64,000 nucleotides of DNA from Candidatus Heimdallarchaeum aukensis (GTDB lineage: Archaea; Asgardarchaeota; Heimdallarchaeia; Heimdallarchaeales; Heimdallarchaeaceae), in contig CP084166.1 in NCBI GenBank assembly GCA_021513695.1, positions 1,760,001 through 1,824,000 on the forward strand. Reading direction: 5' to 3'. The notes beneath the pieces were generated by a model. It was not told where the DNA came from, did no database searches, and saw only the letters and a list, made by a program, of their open reading frames with translations. Shown one piece after another: positions 1-16,652 of the stretch. Position 1 is the first letter of the stretch; every line of letters begins with the position of its first letter. Made by a program: the position numbers and the translations under genes.

Positions 1-345
1 AAGGAGTTAATTGAAAAATCTGCATGTAGGTCTGAGAACTATAAGCAAGGTACAATAATAAAAGATGAAATCTATGAGGATAATATTAACCTAGACGATG
101 AAATTTTTGATTATCCACCGTTAAAGAAATCTTCATTTGGTTTTTCAGACAAAGAACAGGAAGCATCTCCTCTTACTTATAAGCAAGGTAAGACATTCAC
201 TGAACCAAGAGAAATGATTGGAGTAGGAACTTTAACTTTTGGCCGTCCTTTATCATCAAATGGAACAACCTGCTCTAAATGTGGAGCAATTGTGAACGAA
301 GGTTGGCAATATTGTGGAAAATGTGGAAGTTATATAGAAAGATAA
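1..345 (+). CDS. 3' end of a gene truncated by the window edge; C-terminal double zinc ribbon (CSKCG...CGKCG)
   Basis: Frame 1 is open from position 1 to the TAA at 343-345. The C-terminus carries CxxC-x10-CxxC. The rest is uncharacterised. Confidence 0.4.
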   Translation, partial: KELIEKSACRSENYKQGTIIKDEIYEDNINLDDEIFDYPPLKKSSFGFSDKEQEASPLTYKQGKTFTEPREMIGVGTLTFGRPLSSNGTTCSKCGAIVNEGWQYCGKCGSYIER

Positions 346-357
346 GATCTATCTTAA

Positions 358-1653
358 TTATTCTGCATCCACACAACCTTCAGGAGTAATGGCGAAGATA
401 GCCTCTGATTCTGGTAAAACAGGAGAGTCATAGACTCGAATGATTCTCTTTTCCCCCTTGCTTTTTCTTAGATAAAACCTTGTTGTAGCCCAGTGACCCA
501 TAATGTTTCCTCCTATTGCTTGAGTTGGATCACCAAAAAAAGCTCCAGGATTTGATTGTACTTGATTCGTTATAACCACTGCAACATTATATGTGTCAGC
601 TATTCTTCCTAGAATTCCTAAGTGGTAGTTCATAGTTTGCTGTCTTTCTGCTAATGTTCCTCTTCCTGCATATTCTGCTCGAAAGTGTGCTGTTGCAGAG
701 TCAACAACCACAAGTCCATATTCATCTTTTTGGTTGAAAAACAGCTCTAACAGTCTTTCTGATAAAGTCATTTGATGGTCAGAATTATATGCCCTTGCAT
801 AACTAATATCCTTTAACACATCTTCGAAAGATTTTTTCCATCCTAATTCTCTTTGAAAACGTTCATGGATTGCTTTTATTCTACTTGGCGAGAAGGTTCC
901 TTCTGTATCAATAAACACCGCTTTCTTTCCAGCTCCTCCTAATTCAACTGGTAGTTGTACAGTAACGCAAAGTTGGTGACAAAGTTGAGATTTTCCTGAC
1001 CTAAATGGCCCAAAAAGTTCTATGGTTTCACCAAGTCTTACACCAGAAACCCCGAGTTCATCAATCGTAGTTAATGCATCAATGTTTTTTACACCATACG
1101 TAAAACTAAGAATAGATTTTTGCTTTTCTAAGACATCCAAAGCGTTAACAAACTCTATTCCTCCACGAAGTTCTTTTAACGCCTCTTTATATTTTTGTGC
1201 TGCAACAGCAGTTATACCATATTTTTCTTCTAATTCTCTAATTGGAGTTGTTTCTATTAAGTAGACATTAAGTCCTTTTTCTCTTAATGTTTCAGCAGTT
1301 TTTCCACCAATACCTGGTATGTCCTCTAAGTTTATTTCTTCTTTAAAATACTTATATTTAGGAACCATTTTCTTGATAGCTTCACGAATCTTTTTAGCTG
1401 TAGCTCTTTTTACACCCATAGATTGAAGTTCAAGAAGACTTGTTGTCATTATCTGATCGACATTTGTTATATTATTTTCTTCAAGAATCTTTGCTGTCTT
1501 ATCTCCAAGTCCAGGGATATCTTTTAGTGAAATACTTTCTATATCCACAAAAGATTCATCATTTTCTTTTTTTTCGTCAATAGATTCCTCATAGAACTCT
1601 TCAGCTTCCTTTACAAGATCTTCATTTTCATCTTTCTTACTCATATTTTGCAC
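358..1653 (-). CDS. radA: DNA repair and recombination protein RadA (Rad51/RecA family) with tandemly duplicated N-terminal HhH domain
   Basis: Walker A GPFRSGKSQ, the FIDTEGTF motif and a RecA-fold core are present. There are two consecutive DIPG[LI]G-containing HhH modules before the ATPase core. The protein is 431 aa, versus about 320-350 aa for typical RadA. Confidence 0.9.
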   Translation of the reverse strand: MQNMSKKDENEDLVKEAEEFYEESIDEKKENDESFVDIESISLKDIPGLGDKTAKILEENNITNVDQIMTTSLLELQSMGVKRATAKKIREAIKKMVPKYKYFKEEINLEDIPGIGGKTAETLREKGLNVYLIETTPIRELEEKYGITAVAAQKYKEALKELRGGIEFVNALDVLEKQKSILSFTYGVKNIDALTTIDELGVSGVRLGETIELFGPFRSGKSQLCHQLCVTVQLPVELGGAGKKAVFIDTEGTFSPSRIKAIHERFQRELGWKKSFEDVLKDISYARAYNSDHQMTLSERLLELFFNQKDEYGLVVVDSATAHFRAEYAGRGTLAERQQTMNYHLGILGRIADTYNVAVVITNQVQSNPGAFFGDPTQAIGGNIMGHWATTRFYLRKSKGEKRIIRVYDSPVLPESEAIFAITPEGCVDAE

Positions 1654-1728
1654 CGATAACTCAATAAATTACCTTAACTAACATAGATAGATTAAGCTAT
1701 ATAAAGTTAGTATTTTTTTAAAAATTTT

Positions 1729-2235
1729 TTAATAGTCTACTCCCTTTCTTGCAGAAATTCCTTGCTGAAAGGGGTGCGCAATTTCTTTAATTACTAAGTC
1801 CAGATCTACGTCCTTGAAATCCCTAGATGCTAACCTCCCAGTAATAATTATTTTTTCATTTATTTTCTCAATTAATGAATAAATATCTTCAATTTGTATA
1901 AGATTATAATATAACGCAAATCCTAACTCATCGAGAATTAACACATCACTTTCTGTATCTTTAATAGAATCTTTTACAATAGATAGTTGCTCTTTAATGA
2001 ATTCTCTAAACTCGTTTTCATTTTTCTGTGGAATAAAGAACGTTTCTTTTCCTATAGTGAACCAATTAACATTAAATTTCTCTGTAATATATTTACACTC
2101 CCCACACTCTTTTCCTGTTTTCAAGAATTGAATTACTGTTACCTTTTTATTATCTATCAGGGATTTAATTATTTTACCAACAGCATTTGTTGTCTTTCCT
2201 CTACCTGTTCCCCTGATAATTTCGATTTGCACCAT
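1729..2235 (-). CDS. CobA/CobO/BtuR-family P-loop protein (ATP:corrinoid adenosyltransferase-like), intact Walker A
   Basis: GTGRGKTT P-loop, a VIQFLKTG segment and ILDE...ITGR...IKEIAHP match the CobO family signature. Confidence 0.75.
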   Translation of the reverse strand: MVQIEIIRGTGRGKTTNAVGKIIKSLIDNKKVTVIQFLKTGKECGECKYITEKFNVNWFTIGKETFFIPQKNENEFREFIKEQLSIVKDSIKDTESDVLILDELGFALYYNLIQIEDIYSLIEKINEKIIITGRLASRDFKDVDLDLVIKEIAHPFQQGISARKGVDY

Positions 2236-2426
2236 AAAAAAAGAAATTAAATGAATATATATTAAGATTATCAGATGATTTATTTTTCACATATTGATAA
2301 AACAAGTATCCCCATTTCAAATAAAATGAAAATAAATTTGATTCTATTATTTATTAACCCAAAACTTTTTTACAGATTTTTAACAAACTTGTACCATAAA
2401 GTAGCTTCATTCAAAATAATATAAAA

Positions 2427-3437
2427 GTGGTTACCGTGTCAGAAATAGTACAACAAATAATTGATTCTGGTGCAATTTATCTAGTTAATCCAGCTTTAAT
2501 TCAAACAACAGTAGATGACTTTTTAGATAAATATGGACATTTATTAGATGTAATTGGTTTATATGCAAAGGGGAGTAATGGTTTCACTTTTTTCCCCAGT
2601 AATAATGCCCCAAAACATCCAAATTTAAGTATTTATTTCCATTCCTTCTGCACTATTGCAGATAATATGGGAATAAAAGTTGATGCCTTTAGTCATGTAC
2701 ATCGAGATAGTTTTTTGGTTCAAAATGCAGATTTCAGGGAACAAAGTAGTGATGGAGAGAAAATTGATTTGTTCGCATGTCCAAGTCATCCTTACATTAA
2801 TCAGTATAACTCTGCCATTGTTTCAGAAATCGTACAATATCCAGTTAATAAACTAGTTTTGGATAATATTTTATTTGCAAATTTAAAAGCATGTTTCTGC
2901 GATAGATGTAGAAGGTTATTTGCACAAAAATGGAATATTGAACGAGATTTCAGTTATGATTTCTTAAAATCAAGAGATTTTTATGATAATTGGGTTGAGT
3001 TTAGAACAACACTAATAGAAAATACACTAAGAGAGATTACAGATTCAATGAAACAGATCAAGAATGTTGATTTGGCATTTGTCATCAAGGCAGATAAAGA
3101 AACTAGCTATTTAACAGGAACAGAGGAGAATTTTGGACAGAATATAGCAAATATGCTTAAAATTACAAATAACATAATAACCCATGTTAATCCTTGGACA
3201 GAGATTCCCTCAGCTGGCAGTGAAGACTTCCAAAATCTTGTTAATGCCCTTTCACCACTTTTAGAACTATCAAAAACAGGAGTTGAACATTCATTGCTTT
3301 TCTGGGGTGTTAATGACAAAGAAAAATTAGATCTTGTTTTAAAGTTAAGCGAAGATTTGAACCCAAACAATATCTACATCCAAGATATAAAGCCAACAGA
3401 CTTCACAAAGTTAAGGCAAATTAATTTAGGTTTTTAA
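2427..3437 (+). CDS. hypothetical protein with CFCDRCRRLF cysteine motif; possibly TIM-barrel glycoside-hydrolase-like
   Basis: A 336-aa ORF with normal composition. Its stop is 1 nt before the next start. No confident family match was made by eye. Confidence 0.5.
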   Translation: MVTVSEIVQQIIDSGAIYLVNPALIQTTVDDFLDKYGHLLDVIGLYAKGSNGFTFFPSNNAPKHPNLSIYFHSFCTIADNMGIKVDAFSHVHRDSFLVQNADFREQSSDGEKIDLFACPSHPYINQYNSAIVSEIVQYPVNKLVLDNILFANLKACFCDRCRRLFAQKWNIERDFSYDFLKSRDFYDNWVEFRTTLIENTLREITDSMKQIKNVDLAFVIKADKETSYLTGTEENFGQNIANMLKITNNIITHVNPWTEIPSAGSEDFQNLVNALSPLLELSKTGVEHSLLFWGVNDKEKLDLVLKLSEDLNPNNIYIQDIKPTDFTKLRQINLGF

Positions 3438-3438
3438 A

Positions 3439-4881
3439 ATGAAGGGGATCGAAGACGCAGTCGAAGAAATAAAACAAATGTTCTGGGGAGTTTTAAAGGG
3501 AAGTTACAGCCCTGAGGAAGAAGAAGATGTAAAAGTAAGACTTATTACTGCTTTATCAAGTTTAACTGCATTTGCAAAATCTTTTTTGCCAGAAGAACAA
3601 CAGCAAGAATATGAAGAACAATTTTCTCAAGCACGTAACATTTTACAGCGGTTTGATTCAGCTGGCCCTTGGTTCAGAGAGCTTCCAGAGATGATTGATG
3701 CAGTGTACAATATTCTTACCTATGCAAATGTATTGCAGATAGAAGTACAGCGATATAAAGACATGAATAATGATGCGCTACAATACTATAACATAAAACT
3801 TGAAAAAATAGAAATGAAGTTAAATTCACTTGAAAATGAACTTAGAAAAATAAAAACTTATGTTAAAGAGAGGATTACCAAAGAAGATTTGGTTAAAGAA
3901 AGCGAAATAATTGAAATTGAAGAAAAAGAAGAAAAACTTCTTCAAACTCAAGAGATTTTAGGCGAAGAGACTAAACTTGAAACTGTTGAAAGAGCAGAAG
4001 ACTTAGAAGAAGCACTTGAATTAGTAAAAGAAGAACCAGAGCTGTTACAGGTTGATGAAGCCGTTGAGATGGAAGAACCAGAAACAGTAGATGAAACTGT
4101 AATGTCTAAATTAGAGGATATTACAACTGAAGATATTAGTAGCATACCTAAAGATATTTCTAAAGAAGACATAAATTTAATTGAAGGAATCGAACTAGCC
4201 TCAAAACTTGAAGAAGATCACATCCCTATAAAGGAGAGTTTAGAAACAGAAAGTGAAAGTCTGCAAAAACTTGCAAATTTACTTCAAGCTCTTGATCCAG
4301 GCGACGATCTAGTTCTTTCACCATTAACTCAAAAACTATTAGAGCTAAGTGGTGATGAAGGAAAAGCTGAGATAGCAGCAGAAAAAAAGCAAGAATTTCA
4401 AATTGATGTGCAAGAGCAAACTGGCACTGAAGTAGCGAAAGAAGCTGAAATGAAAGATGCTAGTGTTCCTTCGTCAGTTGATAGATTAAGTGACATTTTG
4501 GCTTCACCTGACAAAATACAAGATGCAGCAACATTCATTTCAGCAATCCGTGACACTATTGATCAAGTAGCAAAACAAACTGATGATGATTCAACATCTA
4601 CCCCCTTAACTAAAATAATTGAAGCAGAAACTGGTCAAACAGATGAAACACCTTTAAGCATTGCTGATATTGAGAATATTATTAGCCATTTAGAAAACAA
4701 AAGAGAAAACGCAATAGAACGGGTAAAGAAACTCGAAAAAATAATTGCTACAGAAAAAATGGATGAAGCAGAATGGCAAGATTTAATGATAAGTGCACAA
4801 CAACACCTCCTACGAATAGAAGATACTCTTGATGGTTACAAAAGGGTATTAAACAAATTAAGAATGCAATTAGAAAAATGA
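3439..4881 (+). CDS. hypothetical acidic coiled-coil protein (E/D-rich low complexity)
   Basis: A 480-aa ORF translationally coupled to both neighbours. The N-terminal ~110 aa are globular-like, followed by a long Glu/Asp/Leu/Lys-rich region. Confidence 0.5.
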   Translation: MKGIEDAVEEIKQMFWGVLKGSYSPEEEEDVKVRLITALSSLTAFAKSFLPEEQQQEYEEQFSQARNILQRFDSAGPWFRELPEMIDAVYNILTYANVLQIEVQRYKDMNNDALQYYNIKLEKIEMKLNSLENELRKIKTYVKERITKEDLVKESEIIEIEEKEEKLLQTQEILGEETKLETVERAEDLEEALELVKEEPELLQVDEAVEMEEPETVDETVMSKLEDITTEDISSIPKDISKEDINLIEGIELASKLEEDHIPIKESLETESESLQKLANLLQALDPGDDLVLSPLTQKLLELSGDEGKAEIAAEKKQEFQIDVQEQTGTEVAKEAEMKDASVPSSVDRLSDILASPDKIQDAATFISAIRDTIDQVAKQTDDDSTSTPLTKIIEAETGQTDETPLSIADIENIISHLENKRENAIERVKKLEKIIATEKMDEAEWQDLMISAQQHLLRIEDTLDGYKRVLNKLRMQLEK

Positions 4882-5303
4882 GAAAAATGGTCAATTTTGT
4901 TCATTTTTATTTTGGAGATGCTGATGAAACCTTTTATACAGGAATAGGAACCGCAATTAGAGCTTTAGGACATGGAAAAAAGGTTCAAGTTATTTTAACA
5001 GATAAAAAATTCTATTGGGTAGAAAAAATCTCTACAGAAACAGATGATTTTAGAATTTTTAAGCTGAAAACTAAGAACGACATTAATTTCTTGAAGGAAA
5101 TTATAAACTCCTCAGAACAAGAGTTAATATTGATTTCAGATATCGATCTTCTTATTCAAAATAATTGGATTACAGCAGAGCATTTGAAAGATATTGTGTT
5201 AAAACTAAAAGAAAAGAAGGAAGTAATTATTACAAGTATGTCTTTCTATAAATCGATAGCAAATATCGCAGACTATTGCTCTCATTTTTCAAAAGAGGGA
5301 TAA
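4878..5303 (+). CDS. CobO-like pseudo-enzyme paralog with degenerate P-loop
   Basis: It aligns to the CobO core: GTAIRALGHGKKVQVI and ILISDIDLL...EVIITSM. The Walker A GxGKGKTT is replaced by GDADETFY. Its ATG overlaps the upstream stop. Confidence 0.6.
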   Translation: MRKMVNFVHFYFGDADETFYTGIGTAIRALGHGKKVQVILTDKKFYWVEKISTETDDFRIFKLKTKNDINFLKEIINSSEQELILISDIDLLIQNNWITAEHLKDIVLKLKEKKEVIITSMSFYKSIANIADYCSHFSKEG

Positions 5304-5486
5304 TAAGCAAGTCTAATTTTACTTTTTACAACAAAATAATCTTTAACAAAAAAGCAATTTTTTGATTTTTCTCTTCTACGATTATTTTCGTATATAACAA
5401 GGAGCTTATTATCCACTTTATTCTTCCTATTTCGTGTTTTTTAGAATCTTAGATAGTTTTTTATATTTTCATCAAAAAGAATAGCC

Positions 5487-5921
5487 ATGCAATTCAAGAT
5501 CGATTCTTCTAAAGGACTGCATTTTGTAAAATTAGAACCTGGAGAAGACATTCTCCCTGAACTTAAGAGATATTGTCAACAACACAATATAAAATCTGGT
5601 TTTATTCAAGGAATAGGCGCAGTAAAAGAGGCGACTCTTGGTTATTTTGATCTAGAAACAAAACAATATCTAAGAAATAATATGAAAATCAATGCTGAAA
5701 TGTTAAGTTGCATAGGTAATATTTCCAAGAACAAAGAAACAAGTGAATATATTATTCATTGTCATATCATTTTAGGAGATAATGAATTTAGAGTCATTGG
5801 TGGACATCTCTTCGAAAACACAATAATATCAGTTACAGGAGAATTCATTATTACAGAATCAAAAGAAGAAATTTATCGTTCTCTTGATGAACAATTCAAT
5901 CTTTCACTTCTTGAACTATAA
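5487..5921 (+). CDS. PPC/DUF296-domain protein (PD1-like predicted DNA-binding domain)
   Basis: It has the PPC pattern: LHFVKLEPGEDI...GIGAV...IIHCHIILGDNEFRVIGGHLFE...VTGEFII. Confidence 0.55.
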   Translation: MQFKIDSSKGLHFVKLEPGEDILPELKRYCQQHNIKSGFIQGIGAVKEATLGYFDLETKQYLRNNMKINAEMLSCIGNISKNKETSEYIIHCHIILGDNEFRVIGGHLFENTIISVTGEFIITESKEEIYRSLDEQFNLSLLEL

Positions 5922-5964
5922 AAAAAGATAATAAAGTAATTTCAAAAATTTCTTTTTTTGAAAT

Positions 5965-6924
5965 TTAAAAATCTAAGTTGATTACTTCGTGCTTTTCTAT
6001 ACTTTTCATCGCAGAAACTGCAATATTTAGAGCTTTGATACCATCATCAGAGCTAACAGGAAGGGTTTCATTATTTAAACAAGCAGAGACGAATGCATTT
6101 AATTCTGCACTTAATGGCTCCTTCCAGGGGGTTTTACGTTTTTTAATAAATTCACCATCTTCAACAACAAATTCTTGGCTCATGAAATCTGCTTCAACAA
6201 TGCCATGTTCGCATGTCAACATTAATTTTCTGAACTTATGAGGAGTTAAATAATTACTTTCAATGAATCCTGTTACTCCATCTCCAAAATCTAGAAGTAT
6301 TTCTGCATAGTCATAATATCTGTGACGTAATTTTCCTCCACGAGCGTAAACAGCCACAGGATCTTTCCCAACCATATACCTAAAACCATCTATGTCATGG
6401 ATACTAACATCACGTACAACGTCAACATCCTTAAGTCTATCAGGCCAGTAAGGACCTAATCTTCGGGCACTAAGTAGAACAACATCACCTAGTTCTTTGT
6501 TTTCAATTAGTTTTCTTGATCTCTGTGTAACTGGATTAAAACGCTCAATAAAACCGACTCCTACTTTCCTCCCACTTTCTTTCTCTACTTCAATTACTTT
6601 CTTAGCTTCTTCAATAGTACTAGTCATTGGTTTTTCAATAAAAACATGTTTTCCAGCTTCAAGAGCTTTTATGGCTAATTCAGCATGTGTTGTTGTAGGA
6701 GACGCAATTGAGACCATTTCTATCTCTTCGTTTTTTAGCAAAGAATCTAAATCAGGAAATGTATTAACTTTATACTGTTTTGCTAATGCTTTTGCACGTT
6801 CTTCAGAAGCATCGTAAATACCCACCAAATTGGCTTTTTCGGATTCACTGTAAACTCGAACATGATTTTTTCCCCAACTCCCTGTTCCTATTACTGCAAC
6901 GCCTAATTTTTTCATAATAAACAC
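5965..6924 (-). CDS. Gfo/Idh/MocA-family NAD(P)-dependent oxidoreductase
   Basis: N-terminal Rossmann motif GVAVIGTGSWGKNH, the EKP motif and a C-terminal alpha/beta domain are present. Confidence 0.85.
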   Translation of the reverse strand: MFIMKKLGVAVIGTGSWGKNHVRVYSESEKANLVGIYDASEERAKALAKQYKVNTFPDLDSLLKNEEIEMVSIASPTTTHAELAIKALEAGKHVFIEKPMTSTIEEAKKVIEVEKESGRKVGVGFIERFNPVTQRSRKLIENKELGDVVLLSARRLGPYWPDRLKDVDVVRDVSIHDIDGFRYMVGKDPVAVYARGGKLRHRYYDYAEILLDFGDGVTGFIESNYLTPHKFRKLMLTCEHGIVEADFMSQEFVVEDGEFIKKRKTPWKEPLSAELNAFVSACLNNETLPVSSDDGIKALNIAVSAMKSIEKHEVINLDF

Positions 6925-7021
6925 TATTTACTTTTTTTGAGTTAAATAGAGTTAATTTGCTTATAAATATTTCTTTATGCATAAAATTAATACAAAAAAA
7001 GAATAGAAAGGTAATGTAAAA

Positions 7022-7798
7022 TTAATTATTTTGTAACAATACGAATATATTATCTTTACCTGATTTTCCTCCAAGGAGAGAAATATCGACAATCTTAAAA
7101 TCAGTTTTCCTTATTAACTTAACCAGTTCACGACGTGAAAAAAGGTGATAATAGCGTTTTGCAATAACTAAACCTTCAGAATTCTTCCAAGGTAAATAAT
7201 AATCACCAAAGCGCCAATTACTGTTAAACAATTTCTTAATCGGGAATAGGATTAAATCTAAAATCATCTTAAGTCGCGTATCTTTTTTCCATTTATACCA
7301 AACTGAAAGAATAAAAAAGCCGTTTTTTTGTAATATTTTTTTTATTTCAGTAAATGCACAGATAACATCCGTTTGGTTATTCAGATGATGTATTGCTGCA
7401 ATTGACAGAACTAAGTCATAAGATTCTTTTCTAAAAGGTAAGGAAGTCATTTCTAGATTAACTAGATGGTTAGCAGAGTTTAGTAATAGTACGGAATTTT
7501 TTAGCAACTTGAATGATAGGTCACACAATATAAATTGGCTTTTATATTCTTGAAATAAAAGAAGATTTCTCCCATTTCCACCACCAACATCACATATGAG
7601 ATGTTTTTTTGATAAATCAATTAAATTGGAGATCTTAAGCAAATATTCTTTGAAATCCTTCCATGGCTTGCGCTTTGTTCTTATATAGTATTCACTTATT
7701 GTTGAATAAGCTGACATTAAATTATTCAGGTTTGACTCATTATTTTGCATAGGGAGCACTGAAATTAGTAAATGTTTCTTATAAAAAAAAGGAATCAT
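7022..7798 (-). CDS. class I SAM-dependent methyltransferase
   Basis: Motif I is DVGGGNGRN. Motif post-II is LSIAAIHHL. Confidence 0.75.
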   Translation of the reverse strand: MIPFFYKKHLLISVLPMQNNESNLNNLMSAYSTISEYYIRTKRKPWKDFKEYLLKISNLIDLSKKHLICDVGGGNGRNLLLFQEYKSQFILCDLSFKLLKNSVLLLNSANHLVNLEMTSLPFRKESYDLVLSIAAIHHLNNQTDVICAFTEIKKILQKNGFFILSVWYKWKKDTRLKMILDLILFPIKKLFNSNWRFGDYYLPWKNSEGLVIAKRYYHLFSRRELVKLIRKTDFKIVDISLLGGKSGKDNIFVLLQNN

Positions 7799-7865
7799 AA
7801 GGTTTTTAATTTAATCATTCTCGTTAAAAATAACGATATAAAATAACGGAAAGAGGATTATTAAG

Positions 7866-8492
7866 ATGGGATTTTGGTCTGACTGGTTGGATGCTATCGC
7901 ACGATGGATTTCTAACAATAATTGGAATCAACTACCGCAATCTGTGCTATTTATCACACTCACTAGTATTTCTATTTCAGCGTTTTCTGCAATAATTACG
8001 AAACTGTTAGTGGATACAGAATCACTTAACGAAGACATGCAAAAAATAAACAAATGGAATCAAAAAAGAAAAATGGCAATGGAAAGAGCAGATAAAAAAT
8101 TATGGCTAAGTGTTAAACGAGAAGAAGATGCAATAAAGCGTTTACAACAGAGTATGATGATGAAAAGAATGAAGCCAATGTTAGTTACATTTATTCCATT
8201 TATGGTTATCTTTGCAATCTTAAGAAGAGCTTTTAATGGACATTATTATGCTTGGATACCATTCAATATGGGTAGTTTTCCATGGATAGGTAAGACACCA
8301 TGGAGCGAACAAGTAACTTATGATGGACATGTTTATTCAAAGATTAGCTTTACATTCTGGTATTTCCTATCAAGCTTCGCATTTGGTTCTCTAATATCAC
8401 GTATATTAGGAACAAACCCCCAAGGAGCAGTAAGCACAGATAGTAAGAAGAAATCAAAAACATCCAAAAAAACGGTTAAAAAAAATAAATAA
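7866..8492 (+). CDS. DUF106-like membrane protein (archaeal YidC/Oxa1/EMC3-like insertase candidate)
   Basis: The layout is TM1, a basic coiled-coil segment, then TM2 and TM3, with a Lys-rich C-terminus, typical of archaeal DUF106. Confidence 0.5.
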   Translation: MGFWSDWLDAIARWISNNNWNQLPQSVLFITLTSISISAFSAIITKLLVDTESLNEDMQKINKWNQKRKMAMERADKKLWLSVKREEDAIKRLQQSMMMKRMKPMLVTFIPFMVIFAILRRAFNGHYYAWIPFNMGSFPWIGKTPWSEQVTYDGHVYSKISFTFWYFLSSFAFGSLISRILGTNPQGAVSTDSKKKSKTSKKTVKKNK

Positions 8493-8633
8493 GCAAGGTT
8501 TCCTTGCTTTATTTATAACAAGCTAACTTTCCACTGACAAATTAAAAAATGTATTTTGTCATCAAAATATATATTTAAAAATAATCTTCTTTCCATGAAA
8601 GTATAGTATTCAGAAACAAAAAGAGGATTTTCA

Positions 8634-8891
8634 ATGAGACCTAATTTAAGAGTTAGTAAAAAGCGCATGGTTCGAACCCCAGGTGGTGTTCGCGTTAAGA
8701 GATTAAAGAAGAAAACAAGTAAAGCTCATTGTGGAGAGTGTGGTGCTATTCTAGGTGGCGTCGCTTTTGGTAATCAGAACGAAGTTAGAAAACTTCCTAG
8801 GTCCAGAAGATTGCCTTCAAGAGTTCATGCTGGTTATCTTTGTCCTGAGTGTTTAAAAAGGAAGATCAAAGCAAAAGTCAGAAGCGTATAG
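8634..8891 (+). CDS. rpl34e: 50S ribosomal protein L34e
   Basis: RVSKKRMVRTPGG...KAHCGECGAILGGV matches eL34. The ATG lies 5 nt after AGAGGATTTTC. Confidence 0.8.
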   Translation: MRPNLRVSKKRMVRTPGGVRVKRLKKKTSKAHCGECGAILGGVAFGNQNEVRKLPRSRRLPSRVHAGYLCPECLKRKIKAKVRSV

Positions 8892-8916
8892 CTGATTTAA
8901 TAATTAGGTGTAACCT

Positions 8917-9447
8917 TTGCCAATTATTGCTATCTCTGGACAACATGGTAGCGGTAAAACAACCGCAGCAAAAATGTTAGCAGAAAGTCTTAATTATAGG
9001 TACCTTTCTGCAGGTTCTATTTTTAGAGAAATGGCAGAAAAAAAGGGTTACACCTTAGAAGAATTTACTGCACTTGCAGAAAAAGATACTTCAATTGATG
9101 AATATATTGATAGAAAAACAGTAGAAATTGCAAAATCTGAAAAAGATTTGATTGTTGATGCGCAACTAGCCGGTTGGTTACTTAAGGATATTGCAGATCT
9201 TTCGATTTGTATTTCTGCAAGTTTTGATAAAAGAATAGAACGTATTGCAAAAAGAGAGAACAGAACAATTGAAGAAGTTTTTAAAGAAACAAAAACAAGA
9301 GAAAAATCAGAAAAAGAGCGATACGCTTCGTTATATTCTTTTGATTTAAGTGATTTAAGTATTTATGATTTAATAATTAATACTGACAGGTTAGAAGCAC
9401 AAACAGTCGTAAAGATAATATTGGCAGCAATAAAGGAAAGAGATTGA
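8917..9447 (+). CDS. cmk: cytidylate kinase, archaeal type
   Basis: IAISGQHGSGKTT and SAGSIFREMA, with end-to-end similarity to archaeal Cmk. The eL34-cmk-eL14 order is conserved. Confidence 0.9.
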   Translation: MPIIAISGQHGSGKTTAAKMLAESLNYRYLSAGSIFREMAEKKGYTLEEFTALAEKDTSIDEYIDRKTVEIAKSEKDLIVDAQLAGWLLKDIADLSICISASFDKRIERIAKRENRTIEEVFKETKTREKSEKERYASLYSFDLSDLSIYDLIINTDRLEAQTVVKIILAAIKERD

Positions 9448-9627
9448 AATATATTTCAGTTCAATTAATGTATAAAGTTTTTTCATACAATTCATTTCTA
9501 AATCAGATTCTCAAATTTCAGAATCTTTTAATATATACTCTTATTGTGGAACTTAACCAAACGATTATCCACTAATTATCAATTAATTAGTGTGGATTAG
9601 TTGGTGACAATTAATCGAGGTGCAAAA

Positions 9628-9903
9628 ATGACAGCAATTCAAATTGGAAGAATAGTTGTAAAAACAGCAGGCAGAGAAGCTGGTAAAAAAGCTATTATTG
9701 CAGATTTAATTGATCAGAATTATGTTTTAATTACTGGTCCTAAAGATTTAACAAAAGTACGAAGAAGAAAAGTAAACGTTGGACACATTGAATTAACTGA
9801 TAAAGTTGTTTCCATTAAACGCAGTGCTTCTGATGATGAAATAATAAAAGCAATAGATGAGGCCGGCCTTACTGATTTTATGAAAGAGGAAATTGTTCCT
9901 TAA
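9628..9903 (+). CDS. rpl14e: 50S ribosomal protein L14e
   Basis: MTAIQIGRIVVKTAGREAGKKAII contains a KOW-like region. The start is placed at the ATG at 9628, 6 nt after GAGGTG. The in-frame GTG at 9604 is less likely. Confidence 0.85.
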   Translation: MTAIQIGRIVVKTAGREAGKKAIIADLIDQNYVLITGPKDLTKVRRRKVNVGHIELTDKVVSIKRSASDDEIIKAIDEAGLTDFMKEEIVP

Positions 9904-9972
9904 CTCAATAAAAATGTATCACTACATTTTTATTACTTTATTCTTTTTATTTTTTCGCATACAGTGATTTAT

Positions 9973-10977
9973 ATGACACTAATTTTTGAACCACCAGAGA
10001 TAGAATTAGTAGACGAAACCATTCCTATTATAACTCTATCTTCTGAAACAACGGATTATCGCTATGGTAAATCACCATTAAATAGATCAATAGAGGAACT
10101 CCTCAACTATGGAATTATTAACCTAGATAAACCACCAAATCCAACAAGTCACGAAGTTGTGAGTTTTGTAAAGAAAATTTTAGAAATTCCTCGAGCTGGA
10201 CATTCTGGTACTCTTGATCCGGCAGTTACTGGTGTCTTACCTATTGCTCTAAATAAAGCAACAAGAATTCTGGACACTTTACTTCTAGCAGGAAAGGAAT
10301 ATGTTTCTATAATGCAAGTACATCAGGATATCTCCCATGATAAAATAAAGGAAGTTATGCTTGAATATGTTGGAGAAATCTTCCAGAGACCCCCAATTAG
10401 AGCAAGTGTAAAAAGAGTTTTAAGAAAACGTAAAATCTATGAATTAAAAATTCTGGAAATAGATGATCGCCAAGTATTATTCAAAATGTCATGTCAAGCA
10501 GGAACATACGTACGAAAATTCGCCCACGACATAGGTCAATCTTTAGGTTGTGGAGCTCATATGAAAGAACTAAGAAGAACAAGAACGGGACCATTTACAG
10601 AGGAAACTTTCTTGTCCACTTTACATGGCCTTTATGACGCCTTTATGTGGTATAAAGAAGAAAAAGATGAAATCCCACTGAGAAATATTATTTTGCCTAT
10701 GGAGTTTGCGGTAAAACATTTACCTAAAATTTATGTTAAAGACAATGCAGTAGACTCCATATGTCACGGAGCACCTGTTGCTTTACCTGCAATTTCCAAA
10801 TTCACTTCAAATTTTAAGGAAGGAGATACAGTAGCAATTCATTCGCTAAAAAATGAATTAGTAGCCTTAGGAGATGCACAAGTGGATGCAAGTAAACTAG
10901 AAAAGATGGATTCTGGCCTTATTGTTAAAACAAAAAGAGTTCTAATGCCAACAGGTACTTATCCTAAACAAAATTAA
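9973..10977 (+). CDS. cbf5: H/ACA RNP pseudouridine synthase Cbf5 (TruB family with PUA domain)
   Basis: GIINLDKP...HSGTLDP catalytic Asp motif and a C-terminal PUA domain. An alternative GTG start lies at 9964. Confidence 0.85.
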   Translation: MTLIFEPPEIELVDETIPIITLSSETTDYRYGKSPLNRSIEELLNYGIINLDKPPNPTSHEVVSFVKKILEIPRAGHSGTLDPAVTGVLPIALNKATRILDTLLLAGKEYVSIMQVHQDISHDKIKEVMLEYVGEIFQRPPIRASVKRVLRKRKIYELKILEIDDRQVLFKMSCQAGTYVRKFAHDIGQSLGCGAHMKELRRTRTGPFTEETFLSTLHGLYDAFMWYKEEKDEIPLRNIILPMEFAVKHLPKIYVKDNAVDSICHGAPVALPAISKFTSNFKEGDTVAIHSLKNELVALGDAQVDASKLEKMDSGLIVKTKRVLMPTGTYPKQN

Positions 10978-10986
10978 AAGACTGCA

Positions 10987-11601
10987 TTATTGACTGATTT
11001 TTGAAAGAATTATATTTTTAAATATTTTATATGAAACATCGAAGGTGTGAAAAGGCCATAATCTATCTTCTGTTATTATTATTCTTTCACTTAATGCAAT
11101 GGCATTTCCGATTCCTAAACCAATTTCTCTTTTATCTCGACTTATGAAATTATCCCAAACTGCTAAATCTTTATCTTCTTTTGTTTTTTCTCGATGTTTT
11201 CCAGAAACCTTAAACCTATCAGGATTTTTCACCCGTAGGAATCGTGTTTTTTGGCTTGCATGAAAACCTAAAACTGTTACATTTTCTCGTCCAAACCTTT
11301 TTTTTGTGTATTCAATTTCAGAAGGAGATTTTACTCCATTCAAAATCAAAACATTGGAATCACAATAAATGTTCTTTTCAGCATCTAAAATCGTTCTAGC
11401 AAAAGCCACTGGGTCTCTTGATAAAAGATCTTTTATTACCATCGTTGTATTTTTATGAGTAACTTCTAGTTTTCTTCTCTTAAGTTCGTGGTAAACAGCG
11501 TGACCTGTTTCAACCATTGGTATATTTTCCTCTTCACGAAGCTTATGTCCGTGTGATGACTTACCGCTTAGTTGAAATCCCACTAAAATAAATACCTTCA
11601 T
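10987..11601 (-). CDS. UPF0200-family P-loop nucleotide kinase (dephospho-CoA-kinase-like)
   Basis: Walker A GFQLSGKSS plus ILNGVKS...RFG and SRDKREIGLGIGNAIALSERIIIT resemble the M. jannaschii UPF0200 pattern ERDRRELSFGIGDVIAMADYMIVN. Confidence 0.55.
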   Translation of the reverse strand: MKVFILVGFQLSGKSSHGHKLREEENIPMVETGHAVYHELKRRKLEVTHKNTTMVIKDLLSRDPVAFARTILDAEKNIYCDSNVLILNGVKSPSEIEYTKKRFGRENVTVLGFHASQKTRFLRVKNPDRFKVSGKHREKTKEDKDLAVWDNFISRDKREIGLGIGNAIALSERIIITEDRLWPFHTFDVSYKIFKNIILSKISQ

Positions 11602-11748
11602 CTTTTACAATGTAGGGATTGAAGTTCAATCAAAAGTTTTTCGGAAATGAAGAAATGTTTTATAATTAGATAGTTCTTTTTAGTTAGAGCAATAATCATA
11701 ATGTTTAAATTATGAATTACAAGAGTAAAAATAGTCTCCGTTAAGTTT

Positions 11749-11859
11749 GCCAGGATACTCAAGCGGTAAGAGGTATGCCTGGAGAGTAATAATTCCAAGG
11801 TTTACCCATTAAGCATATGCCTTTATGGCTCCGGGGTTCAAATCCCCGTCCTGGCTCCA
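11749..11859 (+). tRNA. tRNA-Ser(GGA), class II with long variable arm and a 27-nt anticodon-loop intron (11785..11811); CCA encoded; discriminator U
   Basis: Folded by hand. Acceptor GCCAGGA pairs with TCCTGGC. D-arm is CTC/GAG, anticodon stem TATGC/GCATA, loop CUGGAG|A. The variable arm is GCC-TTTAT-GGC. T-arm is CGGGG-TTCAAAT-CCCCG. Confidence 0.6.
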
Positions 11860-11899
11860 TTTCTAAAAAACTTAAGTTGTAGATATTTCCTAGAAATAA

Positions 11900-12635: not shown

Positions 12636-15600
12636 TTAGCTAAAGAATGTGTCTAAACTTTTTATTCCCTCAACTTCTTTCCATGAGATCCCAAGTGTAT
12701 CCAATAGTTGTCCGAATGTTGATTGTACTAACTCTTTCATTTTTTTCACATCTACATCAGATTTAGTTGCAAGTTCAATAGGTTTGACGGAACACTCATC
12801 ACTTAAACTAATCTTATCATTTAGTAGACCGGAAGGTACTTTTATCTTAAAGGGTTTTGTTTTAACGAATGTTATAGTTGAGCCTACGGCTATATCACTA
12901 TTAGGATTTTTAATTAATAACTGTATTGCTGCTTGTAATGGTTGTGTCCAGCTCTCATAATCTTTTAATCTTTTGGAAAGAGTAACTGAAATAGCTAGGT
13001 CCTCAAGCTTAAACGATCTTTCATCGAGCCTTCTCATTGTTCGCTGGACAATACTGATTATTTTCTCTTTTGCAGTCTCCAATTCTTCAGGAGAATTAAC
13101 ATCAGAAAGAATTTTTAAAACTCTATCAAAAGCACGTTTGATTAGAGAAGGAGTGTTCTTTTTCTTGCCCATTAGGCCTTTTACAATTGGTGTTCCTTTT
13201 GTTGTTATTCCAAAGTAATTTTTCTTTCGATCTGAAAGGCAACAATATCTAAAAACGTAGTCAATCCCTAATTCAATTTGAAAATTATCTAAACTCCATT
13301 TCTTTAGTTCTTCAATATCACTTGATTTTGGTTGGTAGACAAATATGCTATCTGTATCACCATATAACACAGGAATTCCCAAATCTTTTTCACAGTGCTC
13401 TTTCGTTTTTGAAATTGCTTCTCTAGCCAAAGCAGTGGTCGATTCTGCCACTGGAGGACAATATAAAGCAAAGTTATCTGAACCTAAAACACCATATGAA
13501 TTGTGAACAACAATGCCAGTATCGCTTACAAACCAACCGTTTGATGTTTGAATGTCGTATACTGGTTCACTTGAAGAAGCGCGGATGTCTCTAATTCGAG
13601 TGGGAATTGTTCCATTATAGGATACAAAATCTTGCTTTTTACTATTGTATAGTTTACCAGACTGTTCAACAACTTGATAAATAGTTTGAATCACTTTACC
13701 ATTTTCAATCCGTTCGTCTCTACGAATATTTACAAATCTACCTGTTGCATTCGCAACCATAACAAGATCAGTAGCCAATTGTTTACTTACAGTTGTATAT
13801 TGAATATTATTACCTGTCATAGCTCTTTCATTATCTTTGAAGCATTCTTCTATGAAAATCTCGGCTCTGGATTTATTTAACAAATGAAGAGGAATTTTCC
13901 TATTGCTCATGTACTTTCCACAAAGCTGTTCTAGAATCCTAGACCAAATTTTAGAGTTTATTACAAATCCTTTTTCACTAGCATTAAAATTAAGATTCAT
14001 GCGAGATAAAACTTCATTAATCTTTTTCCATTTTTCTGGACTCTTATCTTGATTTTGAGAAATAAATATATGATTTTTCTGAATATTCCCTTCAGCGATA
14101 ACCCAAGCAATCAATCGAATGAGATCGTCATCAATTGATATTCTGGCATTATACCATAAACTTTCATCATCTCCAAGTGCAACTTTTATCTCTTCTGAAA
14201 GATTTTTTCTAATGGTTTCTCTTTCATACTCTTTTAGCTCAATCCATCTTGCTTTACATAATTTCAATTTTTTACTTTGACAGAATCGCTCTTTAATAGT
14301 ATGTATGCTTGGTTTGTCAACTGGTTGATTTATTTTGTTAGAAAAATTTTCAAAATCAGCTCTTGAGAATCCTATATACAACTCTTGATCATGAATTAAA
14401 TCTGGAATAAAGAGAGTTTCAGGAGGATTTTGAGTCAATGGAATATTTTGAACAACTAAAATTTTATCATTAATCTTCAATTCCCCAGCATATTTCTCAT
14501 CAACTTGAAAATTTGATAGTAGTACAGGAACTCTATGATTAGCTGTTAGTCTAATAGCTCTCCCATCCTCAAGTATAATTTTTATTAAGTCAGCAGGTGA
14601 CCTTTCCCAGTAACCTTCTATGTCCACAAATATAGGAGAACCAAAAGTTTCATCTTCTTCTCGAGAGATTGATAATATCTGATAATCTTGCCAACAGTCT
14701 GCGAGTTCTCCAATTGGGAGTTTAGTTACTATTTTTGTCTGCTTGTCCCTTACAATTACTTCTGCATCATAGGGCAAACAAGCATTTATGAGAACTTTCA
14801 ATGATGCTTGCATTACATTGCTTAGAACCCTTAGTGCTTTATCGACAGTCTGATCCTTTGCTTTTTCTTTAAACCAGTAGACCCTGATATCACGGATAAA
14901 GCCAATCAACATGGACATTATCCCAACTTTTTTTGTACATACCCAGTGATTTGTTTCTGGTATTTTATTTAGTTCCTTACATTCTTTATGCTTACACCTA
15001 ATAGTTTCATATGAAAGATTACGTGTCTTGATTATAGAGGGATAAAGACTGGCATAATCCAGGACATAAACATCCCACCATACTCCAGCTTTTGGTTGAA
15101 TAACAATGGCGCCTTGGTATTTCTTTCCTTTTATAATCGCCTCAGTAGATACCTCTCCTTTGGCTCGTAGTATGTCTTCTGGTAAAGGAATAAGATAGTT
15201 CCTTTTTCTGTGTTCATAATAGAACCAATTTTGTATCCAAATACTTACACTTGAACGGATAAAATCATCGATAGGCATCTTCGTCATTCTTGAAAGCATA
15301 AAGATAAGTTCCATCACTTGATTTTGACTAAAAGTAGTAAGTTCAAGAGTGATTACAGCGTCTTGGGCGTTATATTCTATAAGTTCCTCTAAACTTAGAT
15401 CCCAAATATCTTTTTCATGTTCAACCTTATGTTTGCCTAAGAGAGTTGAACCTAACTCATCTAAAGTTACCCTGTCATATTTTGCTCCAAAAGCATAAAT
15501 TCTCATCGATGCTTGCCTGAAAAAACGATAAAGATCAAGATGCAATCCATATTCAAGATAAGTATCATTCTGAGTTGAAGTTGTAGTTATAATTGGATTT

Positions 15601-16652
15601 TTCATGTCATTTATGCCCAAGTTTTTTGCACGTTTGTTTAAGTAAGGTAAGTCAAAATTATCTCCATTAAAAGTTATAATTATAGGATATTCATTTATTT
15701 TCTTAAAAACAGCTTCAATCAATTCTTTTTCATTTTCAAATTCAATAACTTTTATTTTCTCATCTTTTTTCTGAATAGACGTTTTTTCTTCATTTAAAAC
15801 ATATATTGACACATCACCACTTGTGTCGGCAAAGCCCACGGAGATAATTTTGTCATTAGCTACCTTGGGATCAGGAATCCTTCCTTTATCACTTTTTACT
15901 TCAATATCAAGAGAACAACGGGGAATATCAGGAATTGGTGAAAAAAATGTAGGAAAATAAGATAAAACCAATTCATGTATTTCACTAGGTTGACTAGAGA
16001 AAATTTTTGTTATTTCGTCCTTAATGGAAGGATCGATTTCTGGTTCTACTTGAATTATTTTTCCGTCCTTAATTTCATATAGCAATCCTGGAACAAGTAA
16101 ATTATCGTAGATATAATTGAGATGGTAACGGATATTAGCTTCATAGGAGGGCTTGATAAATTCTCTGAAGCTGTTTGATTTTCCTCCTATAGCTAGAGGA
16201 TTAGTACCATAAACTTTTGTAAGAGAAATAGAACTATCAGTTAACAAATTGTATTTTTCTACAGTTTCACAACCCACAAATTCCTTATTACCTTGTAGGA
16301 TACTTTCTACTTCACTAATAGTTTTTGTAGTCAACAAATAGGGTTTATGTTCTGTTTTGTCGTAAAAACGGTAAACTTTTCCATCTTCAGGATTATAAAA
16401 TTTCATGTATGCTTGCTCTTTTTCACCATCATAATTTACAGAAATAAGATAAGATGCAGGAAGATCAGAATGGACAACTAAAATATTAGAATTATCATCA
16501 AGGAAAGTGATGTTACTACTATCTGAATCGCTGGAAGACGATTCTTTAACTTCAACCCCTTTGATTTCTGAAACCTTTGTAGGAGAAGAGGATTTTTTAT
16601 TTCTCTCTATATTGGGGCGAGACAAAAATTTCTCTAAATTCATTTGACCCAT
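12636..16652 (-). CDS. polB: family B DNA polymerase with one intein in motif B
   Basis: Exo I DIE, Exo II NGDNFDLPYL and Exo III YNAQD are present. Motif A is DYASLYPSII. Motif B KVLINA|SYGVLG is interrupted by a 427-aa insert running from Cys to Asn. Motif C YGDTDS is intact. Confidence 0.9.
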   Translation of the reverse strand: MGQMNLEKFLSRPNIERNKKSSSPTKVSEIKGVEVKESSSSDSDSSNITFLDDNSNILVVHSDLPASYLISVNYDGEKEQAYMKFYNPEDGKVYRFYDKTEHKPYLLTTKTISEVESILQGNKEFVGCETVEKYNLLTDSSISLTKVYGTNPLAIGGKSNSFREFIKPSYEANIRYHLNYIYDNLLVPGLLYEIKDGKIIQVEPEIDPSIKDEITKIFSSQPSEIHELVLSYFPTFFSPIPDIPRCSLDIEVKSDKGRIPDPKVANDKIISVGFADTSGDVSIYVLNEEKTSIQKKDEKIKVIEFENEKELIEAVFKKINEYPIIITFNGDNFDLPYLNKRAKNLGINDMKNPIITTTSTQNDTYLEYGLHLDLYRFFRQASMRIYAFGAKYDRVTLDELGSTLLGKHKVEHEKDIWDLSLEELIEYNAQDAVITLELTTFSQNQVMELIFMLSRMTKMPIDDFIRSSVSIWIQNWFYYEHRKRNYLIPLPEDILRAKGEVSTEAIIKGKKYQGAIVIQPKAGVWWDVYVLDYASLYPSIIKTRNLSYETIRCKHKECKELNKIPETNHWVCTKKVGIMSMLIGFIRDIRVYWFKEKAKDQTVDKALRVLSNVMQASLKVLINACLPYDAEVIVRDKQTKIVTKLPIGELADCWQDYQILSISREEDETFGSPIFVDIEGYWERSPADLIKIILEDGRAIRLTANHRVPVLLSNFQVDEKYAGELKINDKILVVQNIPLTQNPPETLFIPDLIHDQELYIGFSRADFENFSNKINQPVDKPSIHTIKERFCQSKKLKLCKARWIELKEYERETIRKNLSEEIKVALGDDESLWYNARISIDDDLIRLIAWVIAEGNIQKNHIFISQNQDKSPEKWKKINEVLSRMNLNFNASEKGFVINSKIWSRILEQLCGKYMSNRKIPLHLLNKSRAEIFIEECFKDNERAMTGNNIQYTTVSKQLATDLVMVANATGRFVNIRRDERIENGKVIQTIYQVVEQSGKLYNSKKQDFVSYNGTIPTRIRDIRASSSEPVYDIQTSNGWFVSDTGIVVHNSYGVLGSDNFALYCPPVAESTTALAREAISKTKEHCEKDLGIPVLYGDTDSIFVYQPKSSDIEELKKWSLDNFQIELGIDYVFRYCCLSDRKKNYFGITTKGTPIVKGLMGKKKNTPSLIKRAFDRVLKILSDVNSPEELETAKEKIISIVQRTMRRLDERSFKLEDLAISVTLSKRLKDYESWTQPLQAAIQLLIKNPNSDIAVGSTITFVKTKPFKIKVPSGLLNDKISLSDECSVKPIELATKSDVDVKKMKELVQSTFGQLLDTLGISWKEVEGIKSLDTFFS
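13500..14780 (-). mobile_element. intein (427 aa, LAGLIDADG homing-endonuclease type) inserted in PolB motif B (pol-b-like site)
   Basis: The insert begins with Cys (codon 14778-14780) after extein ...KVLINA. It ends ...VVHN (Asn codon 13500-13502) followed by Ser +1. A LIRLIAWVIAEGNI dodecapeptide-like block lies inside. Confidence 0.85.

Follow-up and report, generated by a model that had tools for sequence, protein, structure and literature searches.

The analysed stretch of DNA from Candidatus Heimdallarchaeum aukensis (64,000 nucleotides of contig CP084166.1, positions 1,760,001 to 1,824,000; hereafter the window) raises the question of why two genes for proteins related to the corrinoid adenosyltransferase CobA, only one of which retains a canonical ATP site, are located on either side of two other genes. 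A preliminary description of this DNA, made from its letters alone, regarded the two genes as an enzyme/pseudoenzyme pair flanking unknown partners. The four open reading frames (ORFs) that it listed are present exactly at the positions and on the strands reported, and they are shown below together with the intergenic region and the gene that follows them (positions are those of the window; aa, amino acids).

1729..2235, minus strand: CobA168 (cobA-like), 168 aa, an intact but divergent P-loop protein of the CobA/CobO/BtuR type, outside the conserved operon
2236..2426: AT-rich intergenic region between the divergent cobA and the operon, a juxtaposition that is genus-specific
2427..3437, plus strand: TIM336, 336 aa, operon gene 1, a glycoside-hydrolase-like (beta/alpha)8 barrel with a Cys motif
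3439..4881, plus strand: Acid480, 480 aa, operon gene 2, an all-helical acidic predicted scaffold
4878..5303, plus strand: pCobO141, 141 aa, operon gene 3, a putative CobA-fold pseudoenzyme
5487..5921, plus strand: PCC144, 144 aa, a PCC/DUF296-domain protein, downstream of the operon here

The interpretation that we favour, with moderate confidence, is that this region consists of two unrelated things, viz. an ordinary cobA gene and a conserved operon for a scaffolded assembly, in which a protein with the CobA fold would serve as a structural subunit, and that the operon does not function in B12 metabolism.

The minus-strand gene was earlier considered to encode an intact protein of the CobA/CobO type, and the profile searches agree with this. 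CobA168 matches the Pfam family PF02572 from end to end (130.1 bits, E 1.3e-37, gathering score 25.7; residues 4-168 on positions 5-172 of the 172 in the profile) and the Salmonella CobA structures 4HUT and 1G5R with an E of 3e-13. It contains the motifs GTGRGKTT, ILDE and ITGR, the C-terminal sequence HPFQQGISARKGVDY and an ARKGVDY tail, and in 14 orthologs the corresponding elements (GxG[KR]GKT[TS], QF(L/M)K, DE, TGR and the tail HP..G..AR.G(D/E)(Y/F)) are invariant or nearly so. As its scores are below both NCBIfam equivalog cutoffs for cobA (101.2 versus 167.75 for TIGR00708 and 115.1 versus 185 for NF004637) while the catalytic signatures are retained, we refer to it as divergent but intact. 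CobA168 shares with Salmonella enterica CobA (1G5R, 4HUT) the full-length domain, the P-loop, DE, TGR and the H-P...G..A..G-DY tail, but the first ~25 residues of that protein have no counterpart in it, and it usually has CGEC in place of NGER and F-[FY] in place of F91-x-W93. In the work on 4HUT, the aromatic pair F91/W93 of the Salmonella enzyme reportedly displaces the lower ligand. In the HMMER alignment T65-F66-F67 of CobA168 lies opposite F91-T92-W93, with the register shifted by one, and all 14 orthologs have F at position 66 and either F or Y at position 67. CobA168 is probably a real ATP:corrinoid adenosyltransferase that carries out ordinary coenzyme-B12 adenosylation. At residues 44-47, where Salmonella has N-G-E-R, most orthologs from the Heimdallarchaeaceae have C-G-E-C, and those in loci L027 and L031 have SGER/GGER.

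The third gene of the operon was also proposed to encode a CobO-family paralog without a canonical ATP site, and both parts of this proposal hold. pCobO141 matches PF02572 in two stretches with a total of 39.0 bits, and the top PDB match for a profile of its family (24 members) is CobA (E 0.0016). When compared by hhalign, this profile matched Salmonella CobA with a probability of 93% over 130 columns and the neighbouring CobA168 with a probability of 44% over 56 columns; pCobO141 matched the family profile of CobA168 with a probability of 78%, and hidden Markov models (HMMs) of the pCobO141 and Heimdall CobA families detect each other reciprocally. The two proteins may thus be regarded as paralogs at the level of the family. 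Because the pCobO141 profile is nearer to Salmonella CobA than to the adjacent CobA168, there is no evident sign that it arose from its neighbour, and an origin by recent duplication of the local cobA was down-weighted on this ground. A further family of short CobA-like proteins, NF005648 (PRK07414), which is named "P-loop NTPase family protein" and not cobA, gave weak matches to both pCobO141 (E 1.2e-3) and CobA168 (E 4e-9), but their scores of 18.5 and 36, respectively, against a cutoff of 248 bits show nothing more than membership of the same superfamily. We know of no functional data for this family.

The loss of the nucleotide-binding motifs is a characteristic of the whole pCobO141 family. 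The Lys-Thr/Ser of Walker A is absent in all 24 members, in which Y-[FY]-G-[DNVS]-x-x-x-[AT]-F stands for GxGKGKT[TS], and the Asp-Glu of Walker B is likewise found in none of them, the position of ILDE being occupied by ISDI in pCobO141 and by IAN[FIV]D in its relatives. In addition, an internal deletion of ~25 residues has removed the part that corresponds to QFLKTGKECGEC...NWF of CobA168 (the QF.KG...aromatic segment), and the protein ends right after an ADY(V/C)S motif, without the C-terminal H-P..G..A..G-DY tail. Although pCobO141 resembles Salmonella CobA in its alpha/beta core, in the helix that follows the P-loop (GTAIRALGHGKKV versus GTAARAVGHGKNV) and in the AD-x-VS motif, it is without Walker A, the DE pair, the QF.KG...segment and the entire C-terminal tail, and the same mechanism is therefore impossible.

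pCobO141 evolves faster than any other gene of the unit, with 28-36% identity versus 49-63% for the barrel, and this rate and the loss of all catalytic motifs are what would be expected if it were a functionless, decaying remnant of a duplicated cobA. However, its ORFs, 137-145 aa long, are intact in 26 loci that span ~30% identity, and 11 residues of the family are invariant (H9, Y11, G13, F19, G24, R28, G31, D90, E115, T119 and Y133) and eight further ones nearly so. Among the conserved residues H9, Y11, W47, D90 and E115 are new relative to CobA. The gene also has a constant position and is tightly coupled to that for the scaffold. This conservation effectively refutes decay, which we regard as exceedingly improbable, and in view of the intact ORFs and the invariant residues of its own pCobO141 is best described as a conserved pseudoenzyme.

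The arrangement of these genes was compared in other genomes, using a scan for the barrel gene with one genome per species, in which ~30 Heimdallarchaeota species were positive. The genes for the barrel, the scaffold and pCobO were found in the same order and on one strand in every Heimdallarchaeaceae locus that was long enough, and pCobO141 is present in 26 of the 26 extended loci. In 25 loci the gap between the barrel and scaffold genes varies from -4 to +8 nt, and that between the scaffold and pCobO genes from -4 to +26 nt. In the window, the first junction is TAA-a-ATG (3435-3441) and the second an ATGA overlap (4878-4881), in accordance with the tight coupling of the genes from 2427 to 5303 that was noted earlier. 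The PCC gene, which was previously overlooked as a part of the conserved unit, is always next to the operon and on its strand: it follows the operon here, precedes TIM336 in other Heimdallarchaeaceae, and follows the scaffold gene in a sister lineage. Its product is a typical member of the family (PF03479, 112.6 bits, gathering score 25; PDB 2H6L with E 6e-19, and also 2DT4) and resembles the stand-alone PCC/DUF296 proteins of known structure (2H6L, 2DT4, 3HTN). The latter have no assigned function, whereas PCC144 is linked to genes for a TIM barrel and a scaffold, and no mention of such a linkage was present in the literature that we found on DUF296, most of which deals with plant AHL proteins.

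The position of the intact cobA gene is a different matter, and two further genes of the window are needed to describe it.

358..1653, minus strand: radA, 431 aa, Rad51 domain 274 bits, the conserved neighbour of the intact cobA
12636..16652, minus strand: DNA polymerase of the PolB1 type with an intein, 1338 aa, 7 kb from the operon in the window

In all genera other than Heimdallarchaeum the order is radA(-) cobA(-) ... u240(-) PolB(-) / PCC(+) barrel(+) scaffold(+) pCobO(+), where u240 denotes a gene for a 240-aa protein, whereas Ca. H. aukensis and Ca. H. endolithica (L006) alone have the order radA(-) cobA(-) / barrel scaffold pCobO PCC(+). In ~20 other Heimdallarchaeaceae species cobA adjoins radA and is separated from the operon by at least two genes in addition to PolB and the PCC gene; the radA-cobA pair was seen in L004/L005, L006, L029 and L031. 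The constant neighbour of the intact cobA is thus radA, and the unit that stays together is that of the PCC, barrel, scaffold and pCobO genes. Since other genera keep cobA apart, the bracketing of the operon by two CobO-like genes is a Heimdallarchaeum-specific rearrangement. The preliminary description was right in seeing an uncharacterised module that is co-operonic and conserved and lies outside any B12 context in the window, but its picture of an enzyme/pseudoenzyme pair flanking the other two genes does not stand; conservation of the four-gene arrangement extends to the barrel, scaffold and pCobO genes of the family, whereas cobA flanks them only in the genus Heimdallarchaeum.

A functional tie between the two CobA-like proteins needs to be considered at this point. 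CobA is a homodimer, and pseudoenzymes often pair with active paralogs. CobA168 and pCobO141, which both belong to PF02572, could accordingly form an enzyme/pseudoenzyme heterodimer in which the dead paralog regulates or retargets the adenosyltransferase, the barrel and the acidic protein being clients of a B12-handling or chaperone-like module. In addition to the general tendency of pseudoenzymes just mentioned, this is favoured by the presence of both genes within ~10 kb in each Heimdallarchaeaceae locus of sufficient length and by their divergent adjacency in the two Heimdallarchaeum genomes. However, the two genes are in separate transcription units, with PolB, PCC and at least two other genes between them in most species; the constant partner of cobA is radA, while pCobO shows translational coupling with the scaffold gene and is nearer to Salmonella CobA than to its neighbour. 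Further, as was also noted in the preliminary description, the window provides no corrinoid context: no gene of the corrinoid pathway is present among 20 further large ORFs in it, and no cobalamin riboswitch or other RNA was found near cobA (window 1-12000). Together with the lineages described next, in which the barrel, the scaffold and in some cases PCC occur without a CobA-like gene in flanks of up to ~7 kb, these observations make a heterodimer quite unlikely, and we favour the view that the intact cobA would have no functional tie to the operon next to it.

The history of the unit outside the Heimdallarchaeaceae was traced through its scaffold. An exhaustive profile search with the scaffold family against 1.84 billion representatives gave 20 matches, and the distant members detected by the profile search are from the Kariarchaeaceae, other Heimdallarchaeota, Helarchaeota and Lokiarchaeota; a metagenome scan with a narrower scaffold alignment (A9) gave two loci only. 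The gene content of some of the distant loci is as follows.

Kariarchaeaceae L038: barrel and scaffold
Clade of L040, L042 and L048: barrel, scaffold and PCC
L047: PolB, then, at a distance, barrel and scaffold
Helarchaeota L039: scaffold alone

The proteins of 334-345 aa that are encoded upstream of distant scaffolds are homologs of TIM336 (hhalign probability 100%, or HMM E of 4e-76 to 1e-81); they are found in four other loci of the Heimdallarchaeia type and show ~30% identity. No CobA-like ORF was detected in L038-L045, with flanks of up to ~7 kb on each side. As the pair of barrel and scaffold, often with PCC, exists elsewhere without pCobO, the latter is a late recruit that is confined to the Heimdallarchaeaceae. 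The order of appearance is thus the scaffold (Asgard-wide), then the barrel and PCC (Heimdallarchaeia), and then pCobO (Heimdallarchaeaceae only); that the barrel and scaffold are older than pCobO was not recognised in the earlier description.

Acid480, the second gene product of the operon, has a pI of 4.35 and contains 24% D+E, with a net charge of -49 in its middle region. The possibility that it is an artefact of low complexity or repeats was rejected, as it has 73 strong orthologs with ~100 invariant positions and only two tandem repeats, both trivial. In the AlphaFold2 model an N-terminal helical domain (~1-150, motif FDSAGPWFRELPEM) runs into a long helix (to ~156), the disordered acidic linkers 152-235 and 306-340 carry short conserved helical motifs, and residues 408-479 form a C-terminal helical hairpin. 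No Pfam or PDB-sequence match was obtained for this protein, and a Foldseek search against the PDB gave generic helical bundles only, with E above 0.3. Members of the scaffold family share an N-terminal domain with WDP(Y)GPWF(R/K)E (FDSAGPWFRE here), a middle part that is long and disordered, and a C-terminal coiled coil. The hyperacidity is confined to the Heimdallarchaeia, the linkers of the Hel and L043 proteins being Pro-rich and neutral or basic. Scaffolds of the Heimdallarchaeaceae carry the extra conserved motifs LIEGIELASQYE, SPLTEKL and LTKIIEAETG, none of which is found in the lineages without pCobO. The family-specific motifs lie at about residues 245-300 and 345-400, and their distribution fits the idea that they would be the site at which a new partner docks. 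Within the disordered region, a short amphipathic motif (columns ~405-420 of alignment A8, Acid480 residues ~272-285) can be aligned family-wide, its forms being QKLANLLQA here, DRLFNILSG/DTLFGIFSP/EQLFSLLSS in the Loki/Hel proteins and, in the L040 clade, LxKMKSLLS; this would be a candidate docking motif of the LD or PIP kind.

TIM336 was earlier listed as an unknown protein with a CFCDRCRR motif. The motif is real, but the fold can be recognised: the AlphaFold2 model is a (beta/alpha)8 barrel (predicted local distance difference test score 89, predicted template modelling score 0.89), and Foldseek matches PgaB with E 1.7e-11, the best structural matches all being glycoside hydrolases. Its 36 orthologs (49-95% identity) are all from the Heimdallarchaeaceae. 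CFCDRCRR supplies the C-x-C-x2-C of a motif of four Cys (C118, C156, C158 and C161) that is invariant in the 36 orthologs. It aligns with the same motif of the GH151 fucosidase 6TVK, and the layout, with one Cys after strand 3 and C-x-C-x2-C after strand 4, agrees with the GH42-type pattern. We take the motif to be the equivalent of the structural Zn site of GH42 enzymes, and this site in TIM336 probably binds Zn. The four Cys are kept in the barrel homologs of L038 and L040. In that of L042 (L042:4860-5864), two of them, the equivalents of C118 and C156, have been lost, and the putative metal site is therefore not universal. CFCDRCRR is also present in identical form, with weak similarity to the barrel, in L036:7722-8933 (Jiangella aurantiaca) and L037:2304-4169 (Armatimonadetes), which hints at a wider uncharacterised barrel family. 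These two bacterial proteins match no Pfam family and their neighbours are uninformative or weakly sugar-related; near the Jiangella gene are those for an ABC ATPase and a BPD_transp_2 permease, a combination that is presumably that of a sugar (CUT2-type) transporter. The listed GTG start of TIM336 at 2427 gives MVTVSEIV..., whereas relatives begin with MSDI/MTDI, and the true start may be the GTG at 2436 (MSEIV...).

In view of this fold, TIM336 might itself be an active enzyme, i.e., an intracellular glycosidase or glycan-processing enzyme of a GHL10/GH153/GH42-like kind within a complex for carbohydrate turnover, in which the scaffold and pCobO141 would have regulatory roles. The structural matches and the alignment with 6TVK agree with such a role, as do sub-threshold matches to GHL10 (PF02638; 16.4 bits for TIM336 and 26.2 for its ortholog P0035), a set of invariant polar residues (K48, D94, E134, D223, H253 and W257) and the association of the distant Jiangella relative with these presumed sugar-transporter genes. 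However, GHL10 never exceeds its gathering score of 27.9 bits, and a family-wide carboxylate is missing at the presumed strand-4 site: position 146, which we take as the acid/base site, is D/E in the Heimdallarchaeaceae but is occupied by K in L038, and D, N or another residue follows at 147. FW[GN]V, with no Glu, forms the end of the strand taken to be beta7; the catalytic residues were placed from secondary structure and not from model coordinates. As the strand-4 site is unconserved and the end of beta7 has no Glu, the catalytic competence of TIM336 is doubtful. Further, no signal peptide is evident on reading its N-terminus, and a cytoplasmic location is thus predicted, in contrast to the characterised GHL10/GH153 enzymes, which as far as we know are extracytoplasmic; genes of sugar metabolism are adjacent in no archaeal locus examined. 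The identity to known GHL10, GH153, GH151 and GH42 glycosidases (Cwp19 5OQ2, PgaB-C 6AU1/4F9D, 6TVK and the beta-galactosidases 4UCF/1KWK) is 8-14% only, and TIM336 differs from them in exceeding no Pfam threshold, in apparently having no conserved pair of catalytic carboxylates, and in being a small cytoplasmic protein (336 aa, barrel only) whose gene is always paired with that for a scaffold. We therefore consider an active glycosidase to be unlikely.

The distant loci also reveal a link between the scaffold and a DNA polymerase. In Loki-type loci and in one from the Helarchaeota, the scaffold gene immediately follows a PolB1-type polymerase gene on the same strand (L041:3038-7362, L043:3172-7320, L044:1175-3422 and L045:1112-4562, and Helarchaeota L046:2052-7224), in L047 PolB is 3.8 kb upstream of the barrel and scaffold, and a tblastn synteny map shows PolB as the divergent neighbour of the operon in ~20 Heimdallarchaeaceae species. 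The PolB and scaffold genes are adjacent in five of eight sampled lineages. The linked polymerases are 44-46% identical to one another and to the PolB of the window (12636-16652), and as the PDB match to Dpo1 of S. solfataricus (1S5J, E 1e-205) far outscores those to PolB of Thermococcales (~1e-44), they are of the PolB1/Dpo1 type. With regard to the polymerase itself, the window PolB aligns with intein-free orthologs in tblastn over ~1-625 and ~1047-1337, and this split indicates an insertion of ~420 aa; the ortholog in L001 is annotated as Intein_splicing.

In Saccharolobus, PolB1 is a heterotrimer, and the acidic tail of its subunit PBP1 modulates DNA binding and strand displacement (PMC5418573). 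By analogy with this precedent, the scaffold family could be an Asgard-specific partner of PolB1, whose acidic region would act like the PBP1 tail as a DNA competitor or recycling factor, with the barrel, PCC and pCobO141 as additions in particular lineages. Like PBP1 and PBP2 of the Saccharolobus holoenzyme (PMC5418573), Acid480 is non-catalytic, has an acidic disordered segment and is associated with a polymerase of the PolB1 type, physically in that system and genetically here. However, PBP1 is small, with a 19-residue tail containing 12 Glu (PMC5418573), whereas Acid480 has 480 aa and helical domains, and its association with PolB is known from gene order alone and is not universal. The recurrent linkage of the two genes and the resemblance of the linked polymerases to Dpo1 favour this proposal, and radA and Hef nearby add weakly to it, but it draws on genomic context alone, there is no link to PolB in L038, in the clade of L040, L042 and L048 or in Helarchaeota L039, and the PolB of the window is 7 kb away. 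In addition, acidity is not a family-wide property, as seen from the Hel and L043 linkers, and a barrel resembling sugar hydrolases has no obvious role in a replisome. A role as a replisome accessory is thus doubtful, although it carries some likelihood. The more specific proposal that the scaffold family is an unrecognised PolB1 accessory factor of Asgard archaea, which in Heimdallarchaeia became multi-subunit through two likely pseudoenzymes (the glycosidase-like barrel and the dead CobA fold) and PCC, is likewise rather improbable.

The interpretation that we prefer, in which an ordinary cobA stands beside an unrelated operon for a scaffolded assembly, would account for these observations in the following way. 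A rearrangement specific to the genus would have set the intact cobA beside the operon, so that their adjacency is accidental. The operon and the PCC gene would encode a cytoplasmic multi-protein assembly specific to Heimdallarchaeia, in which TIM336 would be a ligand-binding, possibly catalytic, subunit, the helical/disordered acidic Acid480 the scaffold and the PCC protein a further partner. The Heimdallarchaeaceae alone would then have recruited a CobA-fold protein as an extra subunit. Because pCobO141 appears to have lost all of the elements that bind ATP-Mg and the corrinoid, while its alpha/beta core has been kept, apparently under purifying selection, it would be a structural or adaptor module, possibly dimerising, that docks on the scaffold, and not an enzyme.

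Several points weigh against this interpretation. In every Heimdallarchaeaceae locus of sufficient length the intact cobA is still located within ~8-10 kb of the operon, and as the whole region from radA through PolB to the operon is syntenic in the family, a functional link between cobA and the operon is possible on synteny. A non-canonical nucleotide site in pCobO141 is conceivable from its sequence, and TIM336 may be a real enzyme, given its invariant polar residues. The physical complex of the operon products is also something that we infer.

If this account is correct, pCobO141 represents a pseudoenzyme derived from the fold of the CobA corrinoid adenosyltransferase. To our knowledge, no CobA-fold pseudoenzyme has been described before, and none was encountered in the literature found on the CobA family. 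It would also define a conserved four-gene module of Heimdallarchaeia, with a clear order of assembly, that consists wholly of hypothetical proteins, this being the database name of all of the module proteins; we found no paper describing the module, and there is nothing on the locus in the Heimdallarchaeum genome paper or in the Asgard replication paper. As pCobO141 passes PF02572, it could be mislabelled as an adenosyltransferase by domain pipelines, and it should not be counted toward B12 capability in metabolic reconstructions. The recurrent linkage between the scaffold and PolB1 in Loki-, Hel- and Heimdall-type genomes offers a testable lead to a possible replisome-associated factor; replication proteins of Ca. 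H. endolithica have already been used in yeast two-hybrid work (PMC12680538). Eukaryotes arose from within the Asgard group, and Heimdallarchaeia is the class usually placed closest to them. If the scaffold were indeed a PolB1 accessory, its history would thus record a stepwise build-up of polymerase-associated complexity before eukaryogenesis.

The neighbouring genes are archaeal housekeeping genes, including those for RadA, L34e, Cmk, L14e, Cbf5, SecY and SRP54, and pCobO141 is 100% identical to an NCBI protein from Ca. H. aukensis. An origin of the locus from a defence system or a phage was rejected, as the PADLOC search for known anti-phage defence gave no match at E<=0.1 and the PHROGs search for phage proteins gave noise only. 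In RadA (358-1653, minus strand), the Rad51 core is preceded by a long acidic N-terminal extension and by two helix-hairpin-helix regions. Downstream of PolB, a tRNA match in Rfam at 11749-11856 on the plus strand (44.5 bits, 108 nt, covering the full 71-position model) probably represents an intron-containing tRNA, and it is located between two conserved unknown genes. One of these, at 10987-11601 on the minus strand, encodes a 204-aa protein of no clear family with a weak match to AAA_17. The other, at 11900-12622 on the minus strand, encodes a 240-aa protein, also of no clear family, that adjoins PolB downstream in essentially all Heimdallarchaeaceae loci (44-60% identity), and in the relatives this gene is followed by one for a protein of ~228 aa.

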